Shown here piece by piece: positions 4,630-28,701 of a stretch of DNA of 57,720 nt. The notes below the pieces were generated by a model. That model saw only the letters and a list, made by a program, of their open reading frames with translations. It made no database searches and was not told the origin of the DNA. This stretch comes from Acidimicrobiales bacterium (lineage in GTDB: Bacteria > Actinomycetota > Acidimicrobiia > Acidimicrobiales > SZUA-35): NCBI GenBank assembly GCA_020628065.1, contig JAHDFR010000001.1, forward strand, positions 1 to 57,720. The letters are read 5' to 3'. Within the stretch, counting starts at the first letter, position 1. Every line of letters begins with the position of its first letter. The translations under genes and the position numbers were made by a program.

Positions 4630-7206
4630 CTACAGCGCGGTGTCGCCGACGGTGGGCTTGTCCGACGCCTCGGTCAGATCCAGCACTTGAGCCGCCGAAC
4701 GAGGCTCGGTGACGTCAACAAACTCGAGCGGGAAGGTCCCGGTTTCCACCAGTTCAGCAATCACAAATCGACCATCAGCATCAGCAGCGAGCCAAACCAC
4801 CATTGACTTTCGCTCCGGCCGTCGCACACCGACCACATTGCCGCCCTCGGCGATCAACGTTCGCTGCGGATGATCGACCGTCAAGGAAATGGACGGGCAA
4901 CGACCGTCACGAACCAGGTCGACCCGCCGTACGACGGGGCCGTCACCTGCCACCTTCAAACCCGCCTGGCGCATTCGAGCCTGCCGCAACCGGACCTCAT
5001 CGAAGATCGGGGTGCCCAGCAGGGCAACCTCCTCTTCCTTGTGAGCATCCGGATCACCTTGAATACGGAAGTCGGCGTCCATCAACTCCGTGGCGACGTC
5101 GGTCCAGCGAGACCTGACATTGCGTTCTCCCAGCGAAGCCGACACTGTCATTGACGGCCGATCGGGGTGAAGGGCGGACCTGAAAGGACGGAGTAGGCGA
5201 TGGAACACAGCACCTTGTCCCAGCAGAGCGGGCCCGAGAATCACCATGCCGAACAACGCGGTCACCGAGGTCACCAACGCCATGCCCGTACCGAACCGAC
5301 CCGTACCGGGACCCGAATCGAAGAACGCCGCCATGGCGGCAAGAACGGTTCCCAAAATCAGAATGGCCGTGGCCACCACGACCCCGTCACCGGGAAGCAG
5401 ATCAAGAGCCCGAGGCTCAGCGGACTCAGAGGACGCATCGACCTCTGGCCGTTTGACGGCGACTTCCGGAGACTGGGCGAAACCTAGAATCCAGAGAAGA
5501 ACAACGGTCATTGACAACACCAACACCGTCAAAAGCTCACCAGCGGAGACCGTACCGGCAACAATTCGGTAGAGACCGACGGCCGCCGAGCCAAGGAGCA
5601 GAGAAAGGACAGCTGCCGTCACTGCATACGTGCGATCCGATGACCGGGCATAACCTGCCAGGCCGGCCAGGAGAGCGAAGAGGACGGCGACGACCAGAAT
5701 GAGTCGACCCGACCCACGAGTGGTGAGGTCAGCCAGAGCGGGGCTCGACACTGACAGTCCGTCGAACGACCGAACATCATCGAGAAGAACGGCACCGGCC
5801 TCACTGGCCAAGGGCACAGCGGGAACGATTACCGCCGACCGGTCGAGATCCGATGGAGGGCCGGAAGCCCGCCGAAGAACACTCGGAGTCAACAGGCCCA
5901 CACCGTCGACCGCCGGCTGCACGTCGGCGCCAATATGCCTCTGGCCGACGGTGTCCACCCAGGCGACCGACGTCAACGGAACAACAGTGGCGGCCACGTC
6001 ATCGATTGACGCCGAGACGGATTCATCAAGCGTCACCACCAAACCCTCCGTCGGATTGCCCGCCCCCAGGTCGAACAACGAGTCGGCGGCACCGGAGTCG
6101 TCGCCGACATCAAGCGAAGCCAGCTGCAGCCCCGGTTGGCCGAAGGCAAACACCGACAACAGGGTGAGCAGGGCGGCCGAAGCAAGAACGACGGTGGGGG
6201 TCATCGGTATGGTCCGTAGCCCGTCCAACGACGTCCGAGCCGGAGCCGTCAGATCACGAGCACCGTTGGTGAGGCCGCTCAGCTCCCCAACCGTCAGTCC
6301 CGTCGACATCAGAGCGGAGCAAAGAACAAGTGCCAGGAGAACCCCGGCCGCCACCGACCAAACAGGATGGGTGATGAGACCGAAGACGGCCAGAACTACG
6401 CCCAACGACACCAGAGCACCGGCAGCCAACGCAACGTCACTACAACAGGATGTGACCGATCGCTGAATCATCTCGGCTCCATCGTCCCCGGACGGCGACT
6501 GGAACCAGGCGTAAAGCCGCCAACAGACCACGCAGCCGGTGACCAAGGCCGCCAGCGAAGCCACCATGGCGGTTGACGCCAACGTCCCGTCATAGGACCC
6601 GACCAGCTGACCGGCAACCGCCGGAGCCAAGACGGTGGAGCCGGCCAAGGCAACCATGGTGAGGGCGCCCACCAACCAGTGGATCTGAACGGCCAAAGCC
6701 ACACCAACCGCCACGGCCAAGACGGCAAGCAACGTAACCACCGGCGAATAGGACGACCAAAGTTCATTCTCCTCCGCCAGCCGACCGGAAACATCAACGT
6801 CGTCGGCCGACACCCCGGCGGCACCAGACACGCTGGACTGGATGTCGTCGACAATGCCGGCCAACGAGCGCCGCTCCACCGCGGCGTCGTCCAGTCCGAG
6901 GTGGAACGCCGTCAAATCCCCGGCAAGCCAATCAACTGAAGTCGTATTGACCCCAGGAATCCGCCCCAGGTCGTCACGAGCAACCGCGAGCCACTCATCA
7001 TCAACCGAGCTGGCGACGTCGACTACCGCCACAAGATCGGGAATGACATCGCCGGCTGAATCGGCCAGATTCGGGTTCGGGTCGACCGAACCGAACAACA
7101 ATGCCCCCCACCCGAGCAAGGTGGCAACAATTGCCGCCAGAAGCGCCAACTTTCCAGCGGACTGATTGGTAAACCAACCGCTAAGCGATCCCCTCCAAGA
7201 AGACAT
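4630..7206 (-). CDS. Large polytopic membrane protein, RND/MMPL-like topology with a soluble C-terminal domain
   Basis: 858 aa. Layout is one TM + ~110-aa loop + ~5 TM, then one TM + ~150-aa loop + ~5 TM, then a ~190-aa soluble tail. This 1+5/1+5 pattern resembles RND/MMPL transporters. I could not see diagnostic MMPL motifs, so the family call is tentative. Confidence 0.55.
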   Translation of the reverse strand: MSSWRGSLSGWFTNQSAGKLALLAAIVATLLGWGALLFGSVDPNPNLADSAGDVIPDLVAVVDVASSVDDEWLAVARDDLGRIPGVNTTSVDWLAGDLTAFHLGLDDAAVERRSLAGIVDDIQSSVSGAAGVSADDVDVSGRLAEENELWSSYSPVVTLLAVLAVAVGVALAVQIHWLVGALTMVALAGSTVLAPAVAGQLVGSYDGTLASTAMVASLAALVTGCVVCWRLYAWFQSPSGDDGAEMIQRSVTSCCSDVALAAGALVSLGVVLAVFGLITHPVWSVAAGVLLALVLCSALMSTGLTVGELSGLTNGARDLTAPARTSLDGLRTIPMTPTVVLASAALLTLLSVFAFGQPGLQLASLDVGDDSGAADSLFDLGAGNPTEGLVVTLDESVSASIDDVAATVVPLTSVAWVDTVGQRHIGADVQPAVDGVGLLTPSVLRRASGPPSDLDRSAVIVPAVPLASEAGAVLLDDVRSFDGLSVSSPALADLTTRGSGRLILVVAVLFALLAGLAGYARSSDRTYAVTAAVLSLLLGSAAVGLYRIVAGTVSAGELLTVLVLSMTVVLLWILGFAQSPEVAVKRPEVDASSESAEPRALDLLPGDGVVVATAILILGTVLAAMAAFFDSGPGTGRFGTGMALVTSVTALFGMVILGPALLGQGAVFHRLLRPFRSALHPDRPSMTVSASLGERNVRSRWTDVATELMDADFRIQGDPDAHKEEEVALLGTPIFDEVRLRQARMRQAGLKVAGDGPVVRRVDLVRDGRCPSISLTVDHPQRTLIAEGGNVVGVRRPERKSMVVWLAADADGRFVIAELVETGTFPLEFVDVTEPRSAAQVLDLTEASDKPTVGDTAL

Positions 7207-7835: not shown

Positions 7836-9317
7836 GTGAGCAATCTTGCAGCGAACACGCCGGTCATTGTCGGTGTAGGCCAAGTCCTCCAACGGCCAGA
7901 TGATCCCCGCACCTCGAAAGAGCCGACAAAACTCATGGTCGACGCGGTGCGACAAGCCGAAGCGGACTCAGGAGCGACCGGAGTCGCCCGGGCGGCCGAA
8001 CTGGTCGTCGTAGTCGCCGGAGCTTGGAACTATCCGGACCCCGGCCGGCTGATAGCTGATGACGTTTCGGCCTCCGGAGCCAAGACCGCCCTCACCACAA
8101 TGGGAGGACAGGCGCCGATGGCTGCTCTGGGCTACCTGGCCGAGCAGATCCAGAGCGGCCAACTCGGGTGCGCCGTACTGACCGGCGGGGAGACCATTTG
8201 GAGTCGCCGTCGTCTGCGTCGGCAGGGCATCAAGATGACCGTCACCGAGCAGACGGACAGCGTGCCCGATGTGGAATTGGGTCAGCCACTGACGATGACA
8301 ACGCCGTTCGAAGAGCAACGAAACATCAGCCAGCCGATCGTGGCCTACCCGTTGTTCGAATCGGCCATCCGCCACAAGAACGGGGAGACGATCAAACAGC
8401 ACCGCAAACGCCTCGGCCTGCTCTGGGCCGGCTTCAACGCCGTTGCCGTGGATAACGCCTATGCGTGGTCTCGCCGGCCGATGGACGCCGACGAGATCCA
8501 ACAAGAGACCGAGCAGAATCGGATGATCGGCTTTCCCTACACCAAGGCCATGAACTCCAACTGGGACCTTGACCAGGCCAGCGCCATCATCGTTACGTCG
8601 GCTGAGAAGGCCGAGGCGCTGGGAGCGCCACGAGACAACTGGATATTTCCCCACGCAACGGCCGAGGCAAACGACACCGCCTCGCTGTCCAATAGGCGAG
8701 ACTTTCACTCCTCGCCGGCCATCGCAGCAGCGGGCAAGCAACTCTGGGAGACAACTGAACAAGATGTCGCCGATCTGTCCGACATCGACCTGTACTCCTG
8801 CTTTCCCTCCGCCGTCCAAATAGCCGCCGGCGAGCTCGGCTTGGATCTCACCCGTCCGCTAACCGTCACCGGAGGTTTGACTTTTGCCGGCGGCCCGCTG
8901 AACAACTACGTGGGCCACTCAATGGCCGCCATGGCAACCACGCTCAGAAGCCGTGCGTCCGGCTCGGTTGGACTGGTGACGGCCAACGGCGGATTCATCA
9001 CCAAACACGCCCTCGGCCTGATGGGTAACACACCGGCCGACCGGCCGTTCCGACGACTGAACGCCCAAAGTCAAGCCGACGCCATCGACATCGTCCACTG
9101 CGACGACGGCTACGCCGGGCCGGTCAGCATCGAGGCGTACACCGTCATGCACGAAAAGGACGGCAGTCGACAGGGCCGATGCGCCCTACGAACCCCGGCC
9201 GGCAACCGAACCTGGGGGCTGATTGATCGGGACAGATCAATTGACGAGCTGCTAGCTGCTGAGGCAATAGGCCGAAGCGGAAACTTGGATGAAACCGGTC
9301 TCCTGAACCTGACTTGA
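7836..9317 (+). CDS. Thiolase-like protein (acetyl-CoA acetyltransferase-like) with a C-terminal OB-fold-like extension
   Basis: PVIVGVGQV, YSCFPSAVQ and GGLTFAGGPLNNY blocks resemble SCP-x-type thiolases. The extra ~100 C-terminal aa look like a DUF35/OB-type module. GTG start. Confidence 0.8.
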   Translation: MSNLAANTPVIVGVGQVLQRPDDPRTSKEPTKLMVDAVRQAEADSGATGVARAAELVVVVAGAWNYPDPGRLIADDVSASGAKTALTTMGGQAPMAALGYLAEQIQSGQLGCAVLTGGETIWSRRRLRRQGIKMTVTEQTDSVPDVELGQPLTMTTPFEEQRNISQPIVAYPLFESAIRHKNGETIKQHRKRLGLLWAGFNAVAVDNAYAWSRRPMDADEIQQETEQNRMIGFPYTKAMNSNWDLDQASAIIVTSAEKAEALGAPRDNWIFPHATAEANDTASLSNRRDFHSSPAIAAAGKQLWETTEQDVADLSDIDLYSCFPSAVQIAAGELGLDLTRPLTVTGGLTFAGGPLNNYVGHSMAAMATTLRSRASGSVGLVTANGGFITKHALGLMGNTPADRPFRRLNAQSQADAIDIVHCDDGYAGPVSIEAYTVMHEKDGSRQGRCALRTPAGNRTWGLIDRDRSIDELLAAEAIGRSGNLDETGLLNLT

Positions 9318-15723: not shown

Positions 15724-16023
15724 GTGCCAATGGACGACGAAGTCGACAACACTGACCGCCAGACTGGGAACCCCGACGCTTCGGGATCCGAAATTCAGGC
15801 TGCGGAGATGCACTCGCAAACCTCCCAGGACATGCCTCAATGCCCGCGATGCGGCGGTGCGCTGTTCGATCATTCGGAGCCGGCGAGGTTCTACGGGCCT
15901 TGCGCCGACTGCCGCCGGCAGCTTCGCGACGCTTTACGTGGCGAGGGTGGAGAAGCCGTCGTCGCCGAATACGAACCCAAGATGAACGTCACTCCCAACG
16001 CCGTCGCATTAAAAGACGACTGA
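15724..16023 (+). CDS. Small zinc-ribbon protein, unknown function
   Basis: 99 aa. CPRC-x16-CADC four-Cys ribbon after an acidic, probably disordered N-terminus. The start is GTG 15724 or ATG 15730. The stop is 13 nt before the next ORF. Confidence 0.55.
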   Translation: MPMDDEVDNTDRQTGNPDASGSEIQAAEMHSQTSQDMPQCPRCGGALFDHSEPARFYGPCADCRRQLRDALRGEGGEAVVAEYEPKMNVTPNAVALKDD

Positions 16024-16036
16024 CGCCAGTGCACCA

Positions 16037-16696
16037 ATGAGCGATATTGGGACTTTGAACGAGCGGTCACTGCATCGCTCGCTCAAGGAGCATCTGGCTC
16101 AGCGGGGGGACCGATTTGAGGTTCCGGTTGGGAACTTCGTCGTCGACATCCTGCGAGGCGCCGAGATAGTCGAGATTCAGACCAGCTCGTTCGGGGCCAT
16201 GGCCCGCAAACTGGACGTGCTCCTCGATGGACACTCGGTCCGAATTGTCCATCCCATCGCCATCGAGACGTACCTCCTGCGCGACGACCGCAAGCCTCGC
16301 CGGTCACCCAAGAAGGGAAACCTCTACTCCGTGCTCGACGAGCTGGTAAGTCTCCCGACAATGATCGACCACCCGAACCTAACCGTCGACGCTGTCCTCG
16401 TCTCGGTTGACAAAGTCCAGCGCTTCGACGACCGGGCAAGGCGAGGACGAGGGGGCTGGGTGACGGTGGACCGAAGATTGCGCGAGATCCACTCCTGGCA
16501 CCGCTTCACCTCCGGCGACGATTTGGTGGCGATGCTGCCCGACGATCTACCCCCGCTGTTCACAACCGCCGACATCGCGCCGACGGTCGGCTCACGCGCT
16601 GCGGCCCAACGGCTGTGTTATTGCCTGCGACAGCTCGGATCAATCGAGATGGTGGATAGAACCCGTAGCGGCATGGTGTACCGGCACGCGGTCTAA
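16037..16696 (+). CDS. PD-(D/E)XK nuclease-fold-like conserved hypothetical protein
   Basis: 219 aa. N-terminal ERSLHRSLKEHL ... FVVDILRGAEIVEIQTSSF has the spacing of a restriction-endonuclease-like core (E ... D ... ExQ/K). The C-terminal AAAQRLCYCLRQLGSIEMVDRTRSGMVYR looks like a winged helix. The family call is by eye. Confidence 0.55.
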   Translation: MSDIGTLNERSLHRSLKEHLAQRGDRFEVPVGNFVVDILRGAEIVEIQTSSFGAMARKLDVLLDGHSVRIVHPIAIETYLLRDDRKPRRSPKKGNLYSVLDELVSLPTMIDHPNLTVDAVLVSVDKVQRFDDRARRGRGGWVTVDRRLREIHSWHRFTSGDDLVAMLPDDLPPLFTTADIAPTVGSRAAAQRLCYCLRQLGSIEMVDRTRSGMVYRHAV

Positions 16697-17156: not shown

Positions 17157-19565
17157 GTGAACACAAACGATGAAACGGCGGCGAGCGCACAAACCCTCTC
17201 GTCGAGCGGATTTGAGCATCTGCAGCTGTCCGACGGTTCTTCATCGGTAAAGGTGACGATCGGCTCCATGGATAGGTGGGATCGCTCACATCTTCGGCGT
17301 CTTCGACAGTCGGCCGACCTTCCAGGCCTCGTTCCCGTTATTGACAGCGACCTCTCCAGTGACGACAAGCCATTCGCCGTCACACCCGTGGTCGACCACA
17401 CAAGTCTCGCCGACCGCATTCCGCCCGAAGCAGCACAGTGGCCCGATTGCGCCGCCATTGTCGAGGCATCAGCCCGAGCGCTTCACGAGGCCCATCTCCG
17501 CGGCCTCTTCCACGGAAGCCTCTCCCCCGACCAGATTTTCGTCATCAACGAGGACATCGCCGTCGAAGGCGTAGGACTCGGCCTTGGCGGTGCCGTACAG
17601 GCCGACTATCAGCACTGGGCGGCCCCCGAGGTACTCGACGGTGCCGACGCCACCGAGCGCTCCGACGTGTACTCGTTGGGCAAAATCCTCGAAGCCGCCC
17701 TGGGCAACAACATTGAGGACGTACCGCGCTCGGTTCGCCGCCTCATCATGTGGTCAAGCTCCGATACCCCTGAGGCACGGCCGCCTTCCGCCCTTGAATT
17801 CGCAAGCATTTTGGCCGAAGCACTAGGTGATGAACGGCGCATCTACTCGCCGGCCTTCATTCCCACGGCTGACGTGAACGCCCTGGCGGCAACGGCATCA
17901 GCCGAAGTGGCTGCCTACGAAGTCTCCGACAGCAACGGCGGAGCCGCCACTGCTGGTCTTGCCGCAGCCGGCGTAGCCGCCACCGGCGCGGTCGTCGCCG
18001 ACACGTTCTTTGACGACGAGCCTGAAATCGACGATCCGGCCGCAGGCCTCGAAGTTGTCGACGACGCCGAGGTCGAAGTAGACGAGATCGCAGCCGACAC
18101 CTCCGATGTGGCCGAGGCGGAAGCCGAAGTAGACATCGCCGAAGAGGTCGAACTCGACGACGCTGATATGGACACGGTCGAAGACGAAGCCACCGTCGAT
18201 ATCGAGAACGAGGCCGTAATCACCGACGAGATTCCGGAAACCGAGGTGAGCAACGAGGCCGCCACGACCACCGAAATTGAAGGCGAGCAAACCGCTGTCG
18301 TCGAAGAAGAATCGGCAGGGTTCGACTCTCGCGACTACACGACTGCCGCCGCCACCACGACCGGAGACACCTACGAGGTCCCGGCCGCCCAGACGGTCGA
18401 GATCGTAAGCCCTCAGGAGCCCACCGGACGCTCCAACCGGGCGGGAATTCTGGTGGGAGTCATCGGAGCGCTCGTACTGGCGTTGATCGCCTGGCAGCTG
18501 TTCAACGGCGACCCCGCCGACGACGCCGAAGTAGCCACCAATCCAGCCGCTGAAGAGGCGGCCGAGGCAACCGAAGACGCAGAACCATCTGTTTCATCCG
18601 ACGACAGCACACCGGAGTCTCCGACAACCGTTGAGGAAGAGCCGGTCGTAGAAGAAGAGGCTGCGGTCGAGGAAGAAGCGGCCGAGGAATCCACAACAGA
18701 GGAAGCTGCGGCGGAAGAAGAAACCGCTGAAGAGCCGGTAGCCGAAGAAGAGACGGCCGAAGAAGCCGAGGCGCCGGCACCGGCTGCAGAAGCCACCACA
18801 CCCCTCCTAGACGGCCCAATCCCGGCCGGCGAAGCCGGCATCCAGATTGTGCACGGCATCCCTGGTGCCACCGTCGACGTGTACGTAGACGGTCAGGCCC
18901 TGGCCCCTGGGTTCGAGCCCGGCACCATCGCCGGACCGGTCGATCTGGCTCCCGGCGACTATCAGGTTGATATCTACGCCGCATCCGACGCTGCTACAGC
19001 CGCCAGTGCCGATCGAGACGATGCTCCGCTTCTCTCGCAATCAGTAACCGTCGGCGACAGTGCGGCATCGTTGTACGCCCACCTGGGCGAGCAGGGCGCT
19101 CCCGCCCTCAGCGCCTTCGCTGAAGACTTCTCCACTCTGGCTCCCGGTCAGGGTCGGGCCATCGCCCGCCATCTCGCCGCTGCACCGGAGGTAACCCTCC
19201 TGGTGGATGGTGAGCCGGTAGGCACCCTGGCCAACGGCGACACCTTCGGCGCCGATCTTGCCGCCGGGTCGCACGACTTCGTCGTACAGGCCGGCGACGC
19301 CGAGGTCCTGGCAGCCACGCTCGACATTGCCGACGGCGAAGTTGTGGTGGTCTCCGTGTCCGGTTCGGCTGCTGACGGAACACTGGCTCCGATCGTTCAG
19401 CGTTACAGCGGTCTCAGCTCCGCTCCGACCCAGGTCCCGACCGGTGACAGCAACCTGCTCGGCATGGACGAAGACATGACCAACCTCTACATCGTCGGCC
19501 TAGTAGCGCTCACGATGGCTCTCGGAGGCCTGGCGCTGATGACCCGGCGCCGTCGGGTTCTGTGA
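17157..19565 (+). CDS. Bitopic membrane protein: degenerate Ser/Thr-kinase-like (pseudokinase) domain, acidic linkers, one TM, extracellular DUF4397 module, sorting-signal-like C-terminus
   Basis: Kinase C-lobe landmarks are retained (WAAPEV, SDVYSLGKIL). The catalytic loop reads HLRGLFHGSLSPDQIF (HRD to FHG, Lys to Ser, Asn to Gln). The DFG position reads VEGVG and there is no GxGxxG loop. The TM is AGILVGVIGALVLALIAWQLF. DUF4397-like repeats are IQIVHGIPGATVDVYVDGQ and VTLLVDGEPVG. The tail is QVPTGDS + 13 aa + a hydrophobic 19-mer + TRRRRVL. GTG start. Confidence 0.8.
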   Translation: MNTNDETAASAQTLSSSGFEHLQLSDGSSSVKVTIGSMDRWDRSHLRRLRQSADLPGLVPVIDSDLSSDDKPFAVTPVVDHTSLADRIPPEAAQWPDCAAIVEASARALHEAHLRGLFHGSLSPDQIFVINEDIAVEGVGLGLGGAVQADYQHWAAPEVLDGADATERSDVYSLGKILEAALGNNIEDVPRSVRRLIMWSSSDTPEARPPSALEFASILAEALGDERRIYSPAFIPTADVNALAATASAEVAAYEVSDSNGGAATAGLAAAGVAATGAVVADTFFDDEPEIDDPAAGLEVVDDAEVEVDEIAADTSDVAEAEAEVDIAEEVELDDADMDTVEDEATVDIENEAVITDEIPETEVSNEAATTTEIEGEQTAVVEEESAGFDSRDYTTAAATTTGDTYEVPAAQTVEIVSPQEPTGRSNRAGILVGVIGALVLALIAWQLFNGDPADDAEVATNPAAEEAAEATEDAEPSVSSDDSTPESPTTVEEEPVVEEEAAVEEEAAEESTTEEAAAEEETAEEPVAEEETAEEAEAPAPAAEATTPLLDGPIPAGEAGIQIVHGIPGATVDVYVDGQALAPGFEPGTIAGPVDLAPGDYQVDIYAASDAATAASADRDDAPLLSQSVTVGDSAASLYAHLGEQGAPALSAFAEDFSTLAPGQGRAIARHLAAAPEVTLLVDGEPVGTLANGDTFGADLAAGSHDFVVQAGDAEVLAATLDIADGEVVVVSVSGSAADGTLAPIVQRYSGLSSAPTQVPTGDSNLLGMDEDMTNLYIVGLVALTMALGGLALMTRRRRVL

Positions 19566-20233
19566 ACTCCAGGGTTCGCTCAGGAATCCTAGTTCTCGCT
19601 ATCTCTCTTTGTCTGATGGGTGCCGCCACTTCAAGTGGCGGCACCATCGGTGCTTCTCTCACCGACACAATCTCTTCACGGGCGTTGCCGGACAACCTGG
19701 TGAACCTGGTCGACGATTTGGCTACCCCTCAAGTTCCGCTTCGCAGCGGCAATCTGGCCGATCAGCCCGAACCCGAGACCGGGCCATCACCTGTATCGGT
19801 ACGCATTGGCGACATTGCATTGGAAGCCCCGGTGATCCCCGTAGGTGTCGACAGCCAAAACCAGTTCGCCGTGCCGGCGGCGGAGCAAGTCGGCTGGTAT
19901 CGATTTGGCCCCCGCCCAGGAGCCGAAGGCTCAGCCGTGCTGGCGGCCCACGTCGACTACGGCGGCAAGCCAGGAGCCTTCTTCAACCTGGCTGATCTCC
20001 GAGTCGGTGATCCCATCGAGGTCGAGCTAAGCGACGGTTCGGTGCTCCGCTACCGGGTAACGGGCAACACCGAGTACGACAAGACCGATCTGCCGTTTGA
20101 CGAAGTCTTCCGCAAAGAAGGCTCCGAAGTTCTTCAGTTGATCACCTGCGGCGGCACGTTCGACCCGAACGCACGCTCATACGAGGCCAACGTGGTGGTA
20201 ACCGCTCTTCCGGAAGCTCTAGTCGAGTTCTAA
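19562..20233 (+). CDS. Sortase family transpeptidase (class F-like)
   Basis: N-terminal signal anchor, LAAHVDY (catalytic His) and LQLITCGGTFD (catalytic Cys). 223 aa. The GTG start overlaps the stop of the upstream ORF (GTGA at 19562-19565). Confidence 0.85.
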   Translation: MNSRVRSGILVLAISLCLMGAATSSGGTIGASLTDTISSRALPDNLVNLVDDLATPQVPLRSGNLADQPEPETGPSPVSVRIGDIALEAPVIPVGVDSQNQFAVPAAEQVGWYRFGPRPGAEGSAVLAAHVDYGGKPGAFFNLADLRVGDPIEVELSDGSVLRYRVTGNTEYDKTDLPFDEVFRKEGSEVLQLITCGGTFDPNARSYEANVVVTALPEALVEF

Positions 20234-20269: not shown

Positions 20270-21034
20270 TTAGTCGAGAGCTTGCATCAATGTCCGGGCG
20301 CTGGCCGAGAAACCCATGTGCTGGTATCGGGCAATTAGCTCCTCTTGCAGAGCGACATCATCGGGGATGGCTCGCAGTCCTTGCTCGAGTGCCTGAATTG
20401 CTCTTTCAGGAGCAGCTGAGCCGATCTGGTCGGTGTAGGCCAAAATCAGCTGGCCGATCTGGCGCTCAATGTGGGCCCGTCGGATCAAGCAGTGCTCCAG
20501 CCATGTCCAATACACCCGACCGGCACGGGCCGACCGGCTGAGAGGCTGGCCCTCCATCTGGGAGACGACAACAGCCGCCTCCTCCAACCACCCACTGTCA
20601 TCACGTCGTGCGGACCGACACAACGCATCAAGTCGGCCGAAGTCACTGGTGTAGTCAGACAGTCGATAGTAGCCGTCGCTGCTTGGCGGCAGCCGACGAC
20701 GCCCGACAACCCTCCGGGTCTCGGAAACGAGATTGAACAACCGATTCGGCGACATAACCCGACCCTGCCAGAGAGCCAAAGCGATGTCATCGCCGGAGAC
20801 CGGGCCACATAGAGCGATAAAGGCCAACAGCGATTGCTGTTGATGGGTAAGCGATCCCCCGTCAGTCTCGACGGCGGGCGGCCCGATGAGTCTCAAGCGC
20901 AATCGGCCGCCCTCACCACCGGCGCCACCAGCCGATTCATCAGCTGACAAACAGCTCATGTCAGCAGTCGGCACGCGCCGCTGAGACTCACCCTGCTGGG
21001 CACAATCAACAAACATGGAAAACCCGCCTTCCAA
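20270..21034 (-). CDS. SARP/AfsR-like transcriptional regulator (winged helix plus BTAD)
   Basis: LRLRLIGPPAVETDGG ... LLAFIALCGPVSGDDIALALW ... NRLFNLVSETRRVVG matches an OmpR/SARP winged helix. A helical BTAD-like region follows, ending LQEELIARYQHMGFSASARTLMQAL. The start is uncertain; there are several Met in the first 30 aa. Confidence 0.7.
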   Translation of the reverse strand: MEGGFSMFVDCAQQGESQRRVPTADMSCLSADESAGGAGGEGGRLRLRLIGPPAVETDGGSLTHQQQSLLAFIALCGPVSGDDIALALWQGRVMSPNRLFNLVSETRRVVGRRRLPPSSDGYYRLSDYTSDFGRLDALCRSARRDDSGWLEEAAVVVSQMEGQPLSRSARAGRVYWTWLEHCLIRRAHIERQIGQLILAYTDQIGSAAPERAIQALEQGLRAIPDDVALQEELIARYQHMGFSASARTLMQALD

Positions 21035-27873: not shown

Positions 27874-28701
27874 GTGTTGGTTGTGCTGGTCATGTCGGCG
27901 ACAATTTCAAGCATCAAGACCGTAGTACTCCCCTGGGCCTACGCAACCGTCTTACGCCCGACACCGGCCCAGAGCGGTGTCTCGGTTCCTGAGCTCACCG
28001 ACCTTCAAGCCTCCCGGCTGGTCACCCTGTTTTGGTTGGCCGTCGGGGCGAGCATCGTTCTGCCACGTCTGCCGTTCGGCCGTACGGTTCTCTACCCGTT
28101 CGCCTTGCTGAGCACCTGGGTACACGAAATGGGCCACGGCCTGGCCGCCATTGCCGTCGGGGGAAGATTCAGGCAGCTGGAGATCTATCCCAACCTTGGA
28201 GGTCAAGCAGTCTCATCCGGCGTCTACGGAGTGGGCCGGGCTATCGTCTCGGCCGGCGGTCTGCTGGGCCCGGCCTTGGCCGGCGGCGCCATCATCGTGT
28301 CAGGATCTCGGGAGCAGACCGCCCCGTGGGTCCTCGCCGTGGTGGCGGCATCGGTTTTCTTCTCTCTGGTGGCGTTCGTGCGAAACCTCTACGGGTGGTT
28401 GGCCTTGGGCGGGGTTGCCGCCGTTCTTGTTCCGGTTGCCCTCTACGCCCCCATCGAAGCCCGCATCTTCCTCGCCCAGCTGATTGGTATTCAGTTCTGT
28501 CTGGCTTGCTGGGGAAGCCTGGACTACATGTTCACCAAGAACTTCTACCGTGACGGACGGATACTGAACTCCGACACCGAAGAAATCGCCCGAGTGCTGA
28601 TTCTCCCCTACTGGTTCTGGGGTGGGCTCATCGCGTTGATCTCCCTCGGTGTGGTTGTCGGATCGTTCTATTTGGCCTGGGTGCTTCCCACTGCCACCTA
28701 G
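27874..28701 (+). CDS. M50B-like integral-membrane metallopeptidase
   Basis: HEMGHGLAA (HExxH) lies in a TM-rich 275-aa protein. The start is uncertain (GTG 27874, GTG 27883 or ATG 27892). Confidence 0.75.
   Translation: MLVVLVMSATISSIKTVVLPWAYATVLRPTPAQSGVSVPELTDLQASRLVTLFWLAVGASIVLPRLPFGRTVLYPFALLSTWVHEMGHGLAAIAVGGRFRQLEIYPNLGGQAVSSGVYGVGRAIVSAGGLLGPALAGGAIIVSGSREQTAPWVLAVVAASVFFSLVAFVRNLYGWLALGGVAAVLVPVALYAPIEARIFLAQLIGIQFCLACWGSLDYMFTKNFYRDGRILNSDTEEIARVLILPYWFWGGLIALISLGVVVGSFYLAWVLPTAT

Follow-up and report, generated by a model that had tools for sequence, protein, structure and literature searches.

Here we describe a pair of adjacent genes, open reading frames (ORFs) A and B, in a 57,720-nucleotide stretch of DNA from an Acidimicrobiales bacterium (contig JAHDFR010000001.1, positions 1 to 57,720; hereafter the window, meaning this whole stretch). 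We propose, with moderate confidence, that the two genes form a dedicated substrate-sortase cassette, with attachment of the substrate to both cell wall and membrane as its proposed outcome. Comparative analysis shows ORF A to be a predicted bitopic membrane protein, in which an N-in anchor places a pseudokinase domain inside the cell and a DUF4397 module outside it. ORF B encodes a class F-like sortase with a membrane anchor; the two genes are inherited together, and their translation is coupled. The C-terminal tail of ORF A has the features of a sortase signal that is common to a family rather than peculiar to this protein, and we view the window as carrying a derived form of a widespread DUF4397/class F-like sortase cassette. 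The ancestral and much commoner cassette consists of a signal-peptide protein of ~270 residues with two DUF4397 repeats and the same tail, followed by a sortase of the same kind; in the Acidimicrobiales lineage, the signal peptide has been replaced by a pseudokinase, a linker, and a signal-anchor helix. The ORF A product is probably fixed to membrane and wall at once.

A candidate sorting signal shared across a protein family

The tail of ORF A is made up of the segment GLSSAPTQVPTGDSNLL, a short acidic spacer (GMDEDMTN), a 19-residue hydrophobic helix, and the basic end TRRRRVL. Its core pentapeptide, QVPTG, lies inside a longer signature and is neither LPXTG nor LAXTG, as the original prediction, made from the sequence of this stretch, had said; NCBIfam reported no cell-wall-anchor family for ORF A at E ≤ 1. 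A search of 5.8 billion protein clusters recovered 59 full-length relatives, all from Acidimicrobiia or Actinomycetota metagenomes, with C-termini that read GL[SA][ST]AP-x-x-VPTG[DN]S[GN]L followed by an acidic spacer, a hydrophobic helix of varying sequence, and an Arg cluster. The three-part sorting-signal layout first noticed in ORF A is thus kept in its relatives, and the motif is conserved while the helix that follows it varies. A logo of 61 proteins with the ORF A architecture (long forms), extending down to about 30% identity, has P757 and G763 in 100% of sequences, P761 in 98%, and T762 in 90% (Ser in 9%); invariance of the Pro and Gly at this divergence is far beyond chance.

The same kind of tail is found outside the long forms. 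We also used the last 253 residues as the query for an exhaustive phmmer search of 1.84 billion representatives. It produced 1202 matches, and the hydrophobic helix and basic tail are present in 87 of the best 144 new matches (50%-identity representatives). Most of these 87 proteins are 255-300 residues long (~270) and begin with a typical Sec signal peptide. Small secreted DUF4397 proteins that end in this signal number in the hundreds. Their signature, a looser version of that in the long forms, G-L-x-[ST]-[AP]-P-x-[GA]-[VI]-[PQA]-[TAS]-G-[DNT]-[SG]-G-L, again has an invariant Pro and Gly, and nine more long proteins, at ~30% identity, carry both the degenerate pseudokinase and the tail. Overall, the conserved 16-residue signal can be written G-L-x-[ST]-[AP]-P-x-x-[VI]-P-[TS]-G-[DN]-S-G-L, with a transmembrane (TM) helix and then an Arg cluster after it. 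Counted from the motif Gly, the most hydrophobic 15-residue segment lies at a median distance of 18 residues in the long forms and 14 in the small ones. A motif of the xVPTG class, (E/Q/V)(V/P)PTG, is proven in Streptococcus pyogenes pilins, where the sortase cuts between Thr and Gly (PMC3019223), and the ORF A signal is a variant of this known type inside a longer, apparently new signature.

One protein at the orthologous position, on a metagenome contig with the 219-residue ORF described below upstream of it, departs from this pattern (P0058, L119 544-2613). It has the same pseudokinase, linker, and TM helix joined to an unrelated ectodomain that lacks detectable homologs, ends in a canonical LPVTG, a helix, and RRRE, and has no sortase gene downstream. 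It is either an independent pseudokinase-sortase-substrate fusion or an assembly chimera, and as a possible assembly or gene-calling artifact we set it aside as an anecdote.

A class F-like sortase gene follows the tail-bearing gene

ORF B matches the Pfam Sortase family (PF04203) with an E-value of 1e-20 and 74.1 bits against a cutoff of 26.6. On the NCBIfam class_F_sortase model (NF033748) it scores 142.9 bits, under the 166-bit cutoff, and its next-best sortase class scores below 27 bits, more than 100 bits under class F; on the same model, seven DUF4397-linked sortases reach 110-134 bits. The protein has an N-terminal membrane anchor at residues 5-26. The sortase His and Cys motifs noted in the original prediction, His130 (LAAHVDY) and Cys196 (LITCGG), are invariant among 36 orthologs. 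Asn210 (R-x-Y-x-x-N, Y-x-x-N-V-V) is also invariant, and R205 is conserved in at least 80% of orthologs; replacement of the catalytic Arg by Asn has been reported as a class F trait (PMC8703055). In a rough neighbor-joining tree without support values, the pseudokinase-linked sortases are nested within the DUF4397-linked ones, with nearest relatives at 45-52% identity, and stand apart from the class F sortases of Rhodococcus, Streptomyces, Kitasatospora, and Planococcus.

ORF A and ORF B are co-directional and share the four bases GTGA, in which the ORF B start codon overlies the ORF A stop; both frames and their overlap lie where the original prediction had placed them. The GTG start of ORF A is supported by an N-terminal MNxxDET that lines up with the first residues of its homologs. 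Conservation of the gene pair, which had been named as a check, is high: among 38 genome loci, a sortase ortholog lies directly downstream in all 35 that extend far enough, and the 4-base start/stop overlap is available in about 30 of 33. A PF04203 gene is also next in four of four distant long forms. The genes around two of the proteins, P0079 (between SRP54 and FtsY genes) and P0110, are unrelated to those of the window, and the pairing is therefore not mere local synteny.

Small secreted forms behave in the same way. After a metagenome scan with nine sequences, we searched 80 of their loci with a sortase hidden Markov model. Of these loci, 51 contain the whole tail-bearing gene and 600 nucleotides or more downstream of it, and in 50 of the 51 a same-strand sortase comes right after the gene. 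As controls we used six tail-less DUF4397 proteins (four metagenomic, one from Thermus, and one from a haloarchaeon), which end after the last beta-strand; none has a sortase within 2.5-3 kb. In all, a sortase follows 90/91 tail-bearing genes and 0/6 tail-less genes (Fisher p = 7e-9, a value that overstates the support because the counted loci are phylogenetically non-independent), and we found no ortholog that keeps the tail without a neighboring sortase.

The small cassette is also present in Thermomicrobium roseum DSM 5159, where a gene annotated in RefSeq as 'DUF4397 domain-containing protein' is directly followed by one named 'class F sortase'. The DUF4397 protein ends in GLGAPPSHVGTGGGS, a helix, and RIERRNLR. 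This pair (TRD_RS12585 and TRD_RS14000; L120 3414-5088) lies on a megaplasmid of a cultured, sequenced organism. More broadly, class F sortases in loci L121-L126 (Rhodococcus, T. roseum, Streptomyces, Planococcus, and Kitasatospora plasmids) each come after a same-strand tail-bearing gene. Their partners belong to unrelated families (ice-binding, beta-helix repeat, hypothetical) and carry the motifs HPETG, LPATG, MPDTG, or GVPAG with a helix and basic tail; the second class F sortase of T. roseum, preceded by a beta-helix protein with LPATG at its end, branches separately near the base of the tree. Since every class F sortase that we examined follows a tail-bearing gene, class F-type enzymes generally look like members of dedicated substrate-sortase cassettes.

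These data bear on a simpler reading of the tail, in which the C-terminal helix is a plain second membrane anchor of a two-pass protein, the sortase serves other proteins, and the adjacency of the two genes is inherited synteny. A hydrophobic helix followed by an Arg cluster is indeed also typical of a normal stop-transfer helix, and many long-form loci share wider synteny, with ABC ATPase, UP219, and PepN genes nearby. However, conservation lies in the unstructured 16-residue motif before the helix and not in the helix itself, and the co-occurrence of motif and sortase extends to unrelated contexts and other phyla. ORF B is the only sortase in the window, and a search of the window for other ORFs with a sorting-signal-like tail found none. 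We consider a plain second anchor very improbable.

Three further kinds of locus were seen in these searches. Four single ORFs carry DUF4397, the motif, and, toward the C-terminus, a sortase domain. The hydrophobic helix is missing from P0144, P0159, and P0168, and P0207, in which both helices are retained, is a read-through. As these may be either true fusions or frameshifted gene calls, we give them little weight as Rosetta-stone evidence. At two metagenome-assembled loci, L020 and L034, the pseudokinase-DUF4397 frame is broken by a frameshift while the sortase gene is intact, reflecting assembly errors or pseudogenes. Finally, at L136 416-3349 a tail-less DUF4397 protein comes directly after genes for an extracytoplasmic function (ECF) sigma factor and an RskA-type anti-sigma factor, an arrangement that indicates that DUF4397 modules occur in a different envelope-signaling context too.

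The cytoplasmic domain is a pseudokinase

The N-terminal domain of ORF A had been described in the original prediction as Ser/Thr-kinase-like but dead, and predicted structure and family-wide alignment both bear this out. ORF A scores 18.8 bits on the Pfam Pkinase model (PF00069), under its 31.7-bit cutoff, and a phmmer comparison with PDB sequences matches it to PknI and PknB of Mycobacterium tuberculosis (about 5e-6). The MADS6 and PLuB models of NCBIfam score far under their cutoffs and reflect generic kinase-domain similarity. An AlphaFold2 (AF2) model of residues 1-245 (mean predicted local distance difference test score (pLDDT) 89.5, predicted template modeling score (pTM) 0.86) has a bilobal Hanks-type fold, for which the best structural matches in Foldseek are PknB, PknA, and Staphylococcus aureus Stk1 (probability 1.0, TM-scores 0.56-0.69).

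We read the catalytic columns from an alignment to five genuine kinases that the same search had recovered. The family has lost the Gly-rich loop; the HRD position reads H119-G120-S121; the catalytic-loop Lys and Asn are replaced by S123 and Q126; the DFG position reads G138-V139-G140; and the alphaC Glu column holds His45, which is invariant in the family. The segment FHGSLSPDQ, originally read as the catalytic loop, is present and degenerate, with the HRD register falling on HGS within it. Retained features are the APE motif (156-158), alphaF Asp170, subdomain XI Arg208, and DVYSLG. The Gly-loop, HRD Asp, catalytic-loop Lys/Asn, and DFG Asp are gone in 15 of 15 representatives, and nine distant long forms (~30% identity) have the same degenerate motifs. 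The statement that every catalytic element is lost needs one amendment, as K32 of the window protein sits in the beta3-Lys column; this column holds Lys in only 2/15 family representatives, and K32 is therefore not a conserved feature. The model also lacks a G-helix, with alphaF (167-188) running straight into alphaH (191-200) and alphaI.

The alternative that this domain is an atypical but active Ser/Thr kinase, and ORF A a PknB-like receptor kinase, could appeal to K32 and to the intact APE/alphaF core. Against it stand the deleted Gly-loop, the replacement of the HRD, catalytic-loop, and DFG residues in every family member, and the scarcity of the beta3 Lys. Column-by-column alignment, which shows no intact catalytic residues in the family, effectively rules out an active kinase, and we attach next to no probability to it. 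The alignments instead show the domain to be a pseudokinase, predicted to be unable to catalyze phosphotransfer. Within the family, no other part of the protein is as strongly conserved: block conservation reaches 0.8-0.95 here, compared with 0.55-0.75 in the ectodomain and 0.07-0.4 in the linkers.

An internal signal anchor separates pseudokinase and DUF4397 module

Composition and hydropathy recover the layout originally described for the rest of the protein, an acidic tract, one TM helix, and a second acidic tract. The cytoplasmic linker (~185 residues) has a net charge of about -51 over residues 246-425. The TM helix that follows has a Kyte-Doolittle (KD) mean of 2.53 over 19 residues, comes after R425 and R428, and is kept in every long form; a second helix at residues 777-795 is followed by RRRR. 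By the positive-inside rule, the positive residues before the first helix and after the second place the pseudokinase and the linker in the cytoplasm and the DUF4397 module outside. ORF A has no cleavable N-terminal signal peptide and uses this internal signal anchor (431-449) instead; no AxA-type cleavage site was found after the internal helix.

Two features of the cytoplasmic linker deserve mention. An Ala/Gly-rich hydrophobic patch at residues 263-281 (17943-17999) has a KD mean of 1.67, which attains the hydropathy threshold, and a semi-conserved character. It is probably not an additional TM helix, and we rejected it as one because it lacks flanking positive charges and because its insertion would invert the topology, leaving the Arg clusters and DUF4397 on the wrong side; the patch might nevertheless be membrane-associated. 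A conserved island, Y-E-V-P-A-A-Q-T413-V-E-I (residues 406-417, 18372-18407), stands about 20 residues ahead of the TM helix inside the otherwise hypervariable linker. Its consensus, Y-x-V-P-A-A-Q-T413-V-[DE]-[LI], is present in 47/68 long forms, with T413 at least 90% conserved. The island fits a pT-x-x-[LI] site of the kind bound by forkhead-associated (FHA) domains, and its role as an FHA-recruiting site is only a lead.

On the outer side, the acidic linker (~95 residues) has a net charge of about -35 over residues 459-552 and is hypervariable in length and sequence among homologs. Beyond it, Pfam DUF4397 (PF14344) matches the first repeat at residues 560-680 (E 5e-18, 66.2 bits against a cutoff of 30.6), and the second repeat is visible only in the AF2 model. 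That model, of residues 544-802 (pLDDT 90), has two beta-sandwiches, in agreement with the two-repeat beta module originally proposed, then the unstructured motif stretch and a single long helix. The closest Foldseek matches to the ectodomain are the tandem immunoglobulin-like (Ig-like) extracellular domains of PepT1/PepT2, the luminal domain of HGSNAT, and both domains of AlgF, which binds alginate; judging from these predicted structures, the DUF4397 module is a non-enzymatic fold that may bind glycans. No conserved Lys was found in the ectodomain among homologs, which argues against pilus-type polymerization; we rejected a pilus-like assembly on this ground and because the long form has no free extracellular N-terminus.

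The internal helix might itself be cut after insertion, by signal peptidase, a rhomboid protease, or a site-2 protease, such that the wall-anchored DUF4397 module and the pseudokinase separate and their fusion serves only co-expression or regulated release. Regulated intramembrane proteolysis is common among bitopic signaling proteins, and the window does encode an M50B-like peptidase (27874-28701). That gene, however, lies 8 kb away and outside the conserved block, no protease gene is linked to the pair, and no AxA-type site follows the helix. The extreme conservation of the pseudokinase and the constant architecture in about 70 sequences further suggest one working polypeptide, and we judge an internal cut improbable.

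Genomic setting

The features of the two genes are collected in Table 1. The window has a G+C content of ~62%, and its closest relatives are metagenome-assembled Acidimicrobiales genomes. Its genes are those of an ordinary housekeeping chromosome (OtsA, an EPSP-synthase-family enzyme, an ABC ATPase, PepN, Dxs, and GlgB), and we accordingly rejected a mobile element or defense island. Rfam, run on the whole window including the 460-nucleotide gap upstream of ORF A, found one tRNA only, and a riboswitch or other RNA element in that gap was rejected on this basis. Promoter and terminator scans performed no better than on shuffled sequences.

Table 1. Features of the ORF A-ORF B gene pair (positions in the window; residues of ORF A unless stated)
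Feature	Position	Strand	Residues or length	Basis
ORF A	17157-19565	+	802 aa, GTG start	
Cytoplasmic pseudokinase domain	17157-17891	+	1-245	AF2, Foldseek, phmmer, column analysis
Cytoplasmic acidic low-complexity linker	17892-18449	+	246-431	Composition, hydropathy
Internal TM helix/signal anchor	18450-18524	+	Hydrophobic core 431-449	Hydropathy
Extracytoplasmic acidic Glu/Ala/Thr/Pro-rich linker	18525-18812	+	457-552	Composition
Two tandem DUF4397 Ig-like beta-sandwiches	18813-19409	+	~562-655 and 665-751	Pfam, AF2
Predicted sorting motif G-L-S-S-A-P-T-Q-V-P-T-G-D-S-N-L-L	19410-19460	+	752-768	Logo, homolog tails
Acidic spacer GMDEDMTN, hydrophobic helix, basic tail TRRRRVL, stop	19461-19565	+	Helix 777-795	Hydropathy, homolog comparison
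ORF B, class F-like sortase	19562-20233	+	223 aa	Pfam Sortase, NF033748, conservation

Several neighboring ORFs are also conserved. Directly upstream of the pseudokinase gene, a 219-residue ORF (16037-16696, +) has no Pfam or NCBIfam match and is kept at the same position in about 34/38 genome loci (54-84% identity). Between it and the ABC ATPase gene, a 99-residue ORF with two CxxC pairs (CPRCGG ... CADCRR; 15724-16023, +) is kept in most related loci. Convergent with the sortase gene, a 254-residue ORF (20270-21034, -) is kept in most related loci at 28-55% identity; it has a weak TPR_14 match alone and by eye resembles a winged-helix plus BTAD (SARP-like) regulator, which would be of interest next to a kinase-like protein. 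Farther away, two ORFs of 858 residues (4630-7206, -) and 493 residues (7836-9317, +) have high third-position G+C and no Pfam match at E ≤ 1e-5.

Discussion

We propose a model for the cassette that draws on its predicted topology. After membrane insertion, the C-terminal helix and Arg cluster of ORF A would retain the motif at the outer face of the membrane, where Cys196 of the sortase would attack the T762-G763 bond (a cut site placed by analogy with LPXTG, cleaved between Thr and Gly) to give a thioacyl intermediate. The DUF4397 module would then be passed to an amine, most probably that of a peptidoglycan precursor stem peptide. The internal TM helix is not a cleavable signal peptide, and the product would therefore stay in the membrane while bonded to the wall: a mature protein that is membrane-held and covalently wall-bonded, with the ~95-residue acidic spacer bridging the gap. 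Reasoning from established sortase chemistry, this double attachment could serve as a tether or sensor. More speculatively, the pseudokinase could act as a cytoplasmic scaffold or allosteric partner (of an active Ser/Thr kinase or FHA protein, for instance), and the system might link cytoplasmic control of envelope growth to a fixed point in the wall. The best precedent for such a role is the MviN pseudokinase of M. tuberculosis.

A different outcome of the same reaction is that the sortase processes the tail but the ectodomain is not joined to peptidoglycan. It might instead be passed to a secondary wall polymer, a lipid, or another protein, or hydrolysis of the thioacyl intermediate might free the C-terminus, and the cassette would then serve maturation or shedding. 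The acceptor of class F sortases is not established for the DUF4397-linked clade, the motif differs from LPXTG, and small forms tolerate Ala, Ser, or Gly before the invariant Gly. The small cassette is moreover carried by T. roseum, whose lineage has an unusual envelope. Every characterized sortase, on the other hand, resolves its intermediate with an amine, and housekeeping enzymes use lipid II/the peptidoglycan stem peptide, according to a review. A protein acceptor is disfavored by the lack of a conserved ectodomain Lys and of a free extracellular N-terminus in the long form. We hold processing without wall attachment to be unlikely, while giving it a real share of the probability.

Several points weigh against a dedicated cassette with wall and membrane attachment. 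All of the evidence consists of sequence comparison and predicted structures, and all long-form carriers are uncultured, metagenome-assembled genomes; the non-independence of the loci noted above tempers the statistical association between tail and sortase, and the class F score of ORF B is under the model's cutoff. The residue before the invariant Gly may be Thr, Ser, Ala, or even Gly in small forms, suggesting that the chemistry may not simply copy that of LPXTG cleavage, and the spacer between motif and helix is longer than in classical signals. A search for a kinase or FHA gene, as a partner for the pseudokinase, among the genes of the window found neither. Finally, the only characterized class F enzyme uses LPXTG, and a 2026 study found that a quadruple deletion of class F sortases in Actinoplanes has no phenotype (PMC13251363).

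In our literature searches (DUF4397, class F sortase, and pseudokinase with sortase), neither the cassette nor the signal nor the fusion was found described, in line with the original statement that such an architecture was not known to have been characterized. Each ingredient has precedent, in sortase-substrate pairs, non-LPXTG motifs, and proteins that join a pseudokinase, TM helix, and ectodomain, and the arrangement is thus not categorically new. Because small secreted DUF4397 proteins generally share the cassette of tail and sortase, what is new is the signal and its fusion to a pseudokinase and TM helix. The new elements are a recognizable sorting signature of 16 residues, a candidate substrate family, the first for a large class F-like sortase clade, and a sortase substrate that is a bitopic pseudokinase protein. 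A bolder version, which we offer tentatively and consider somewhat doubtful, is that ORF A is the first integral, signaling-type sortase substrate, a covalent strut from peptidoglycan through the membrane to a pseudokinase, that GLxxAPxxVPTG[DN]SGL is a new signal, and that these proteins are the first physiological substrate family of class F-type sortases.

Class F sortases are among the most numerous in sequence databases, and their physiological role was still described as unknown in 2026 (PMC13251363). The data presented here would give them a concrete and widespread substrate family (DUF4397), a defined signature, and a cultured organism, T. roseum, in which to work. If the bolder version is right, the position, tension, or synthesis state of the wall could be read or fixed from within the cell, for example through allosteric control of an active Ser/Thr kinase or through FHA recruitment by the juxtamembrane Thr. 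A membrane-locked sortase substrate would represent a new envelope-to-cytoplasm coupling that complements PASTA sensing of the PknB type and the MviN/FhaA module, and would provide a role for one family of bacterial pseudokinases and for a domain of unknown function. Oceans, soils, and wastewater contain abundant but poorly studied Acidimicrobiia, and a strongly conserved envelope protein is therefore a useful entry point into their biology.

Among known pseudokinases, ORF A clearly resembles, by description, the actinobacterial ActPs1 family, in which all three catalytic residues are substituted and the G-helix is missing in about 60% of members (PMC12599244). It shares the actinobacterial origin, the degenerate catalytic residues, and the missing G-helix, but lacks the PQQ domain typical of many ActPs1 members; the same 2025 review of bacterial pseudokinases mentions neither DUF4397 nor sortases (PMC12599244). 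M. tuberculosis MviN/MurJ (Rv3910, ActPs3), which has a role in cell-wall homeostasis, likewise combines a degenerate cytoplasmic pseudokinase, a TM helix, and an extracytoplasmic beta-rich domain, and T413 of ORF A (T-V-E-I) recalls the PknB-phosphorylated MviN tail that recruits FhaA. Unlike MviN, ORF A has no MurJ flippase domain and carries DUF4397 in place of a carbohydrate-binding module or PQQ domain, while MviN has neither a sorting signal nor a dedicated sortase. The PASTA kinases (PknB, Stk1, PrkC) are the nearest N-terminal relatives in sequence and structure and are also bitopic with a wall-facing ectodomain; they are active kinases that bind muropeptides non-covalently through PASTA domains, whereas ORF A has a dead kinase and a predicted covalent wall link. 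EssB/YukC of type VIIb secretion is a bitopic membrane protein that also uses a cytoplasmic pseudokinase fold as a scaffold, but it belongs to Bacillota, is part of a secretion machine, and has no sortase signal or DUF4397.

On the sortase side, classical substrates, those of Cutibacterium acnes SrtF (LPXTG), and those of S. pyogenes Spy0129 share with the window the tripartite signal, and their enzymes the His/Cys active site. The motif used by Spy0129, a class B pilus sortase, even shares the core VPTG with the window signal, though the window sortase is of an unrelated class and its substrate has no pilin-type Lys. The window further differs from the classical systems in its 16-residue non-LPXTG signature, a sortase that scores under the class F cutoff, and a substrate that is membrane-embedded and has no cleavable signal peptide. 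A close counterpart is the small cassette, for example that of T. roseum, with two DUF4397 repeats, a GL-x-x-[AP]-P-x-x-V-x-[TSA]-G signal followed by a TM helix and basic residues, a sortase of the same clade, and the same gene order and tight spacing. Its protein has a cleavable signal peptide and no cytoplasmic part; in the window protein, the place of the signal peptide is taken by a 245-residue pseudokinase, a 185-residue acidic linker, a signal-anchor TM helix, and a 95-residue acidic spacer.

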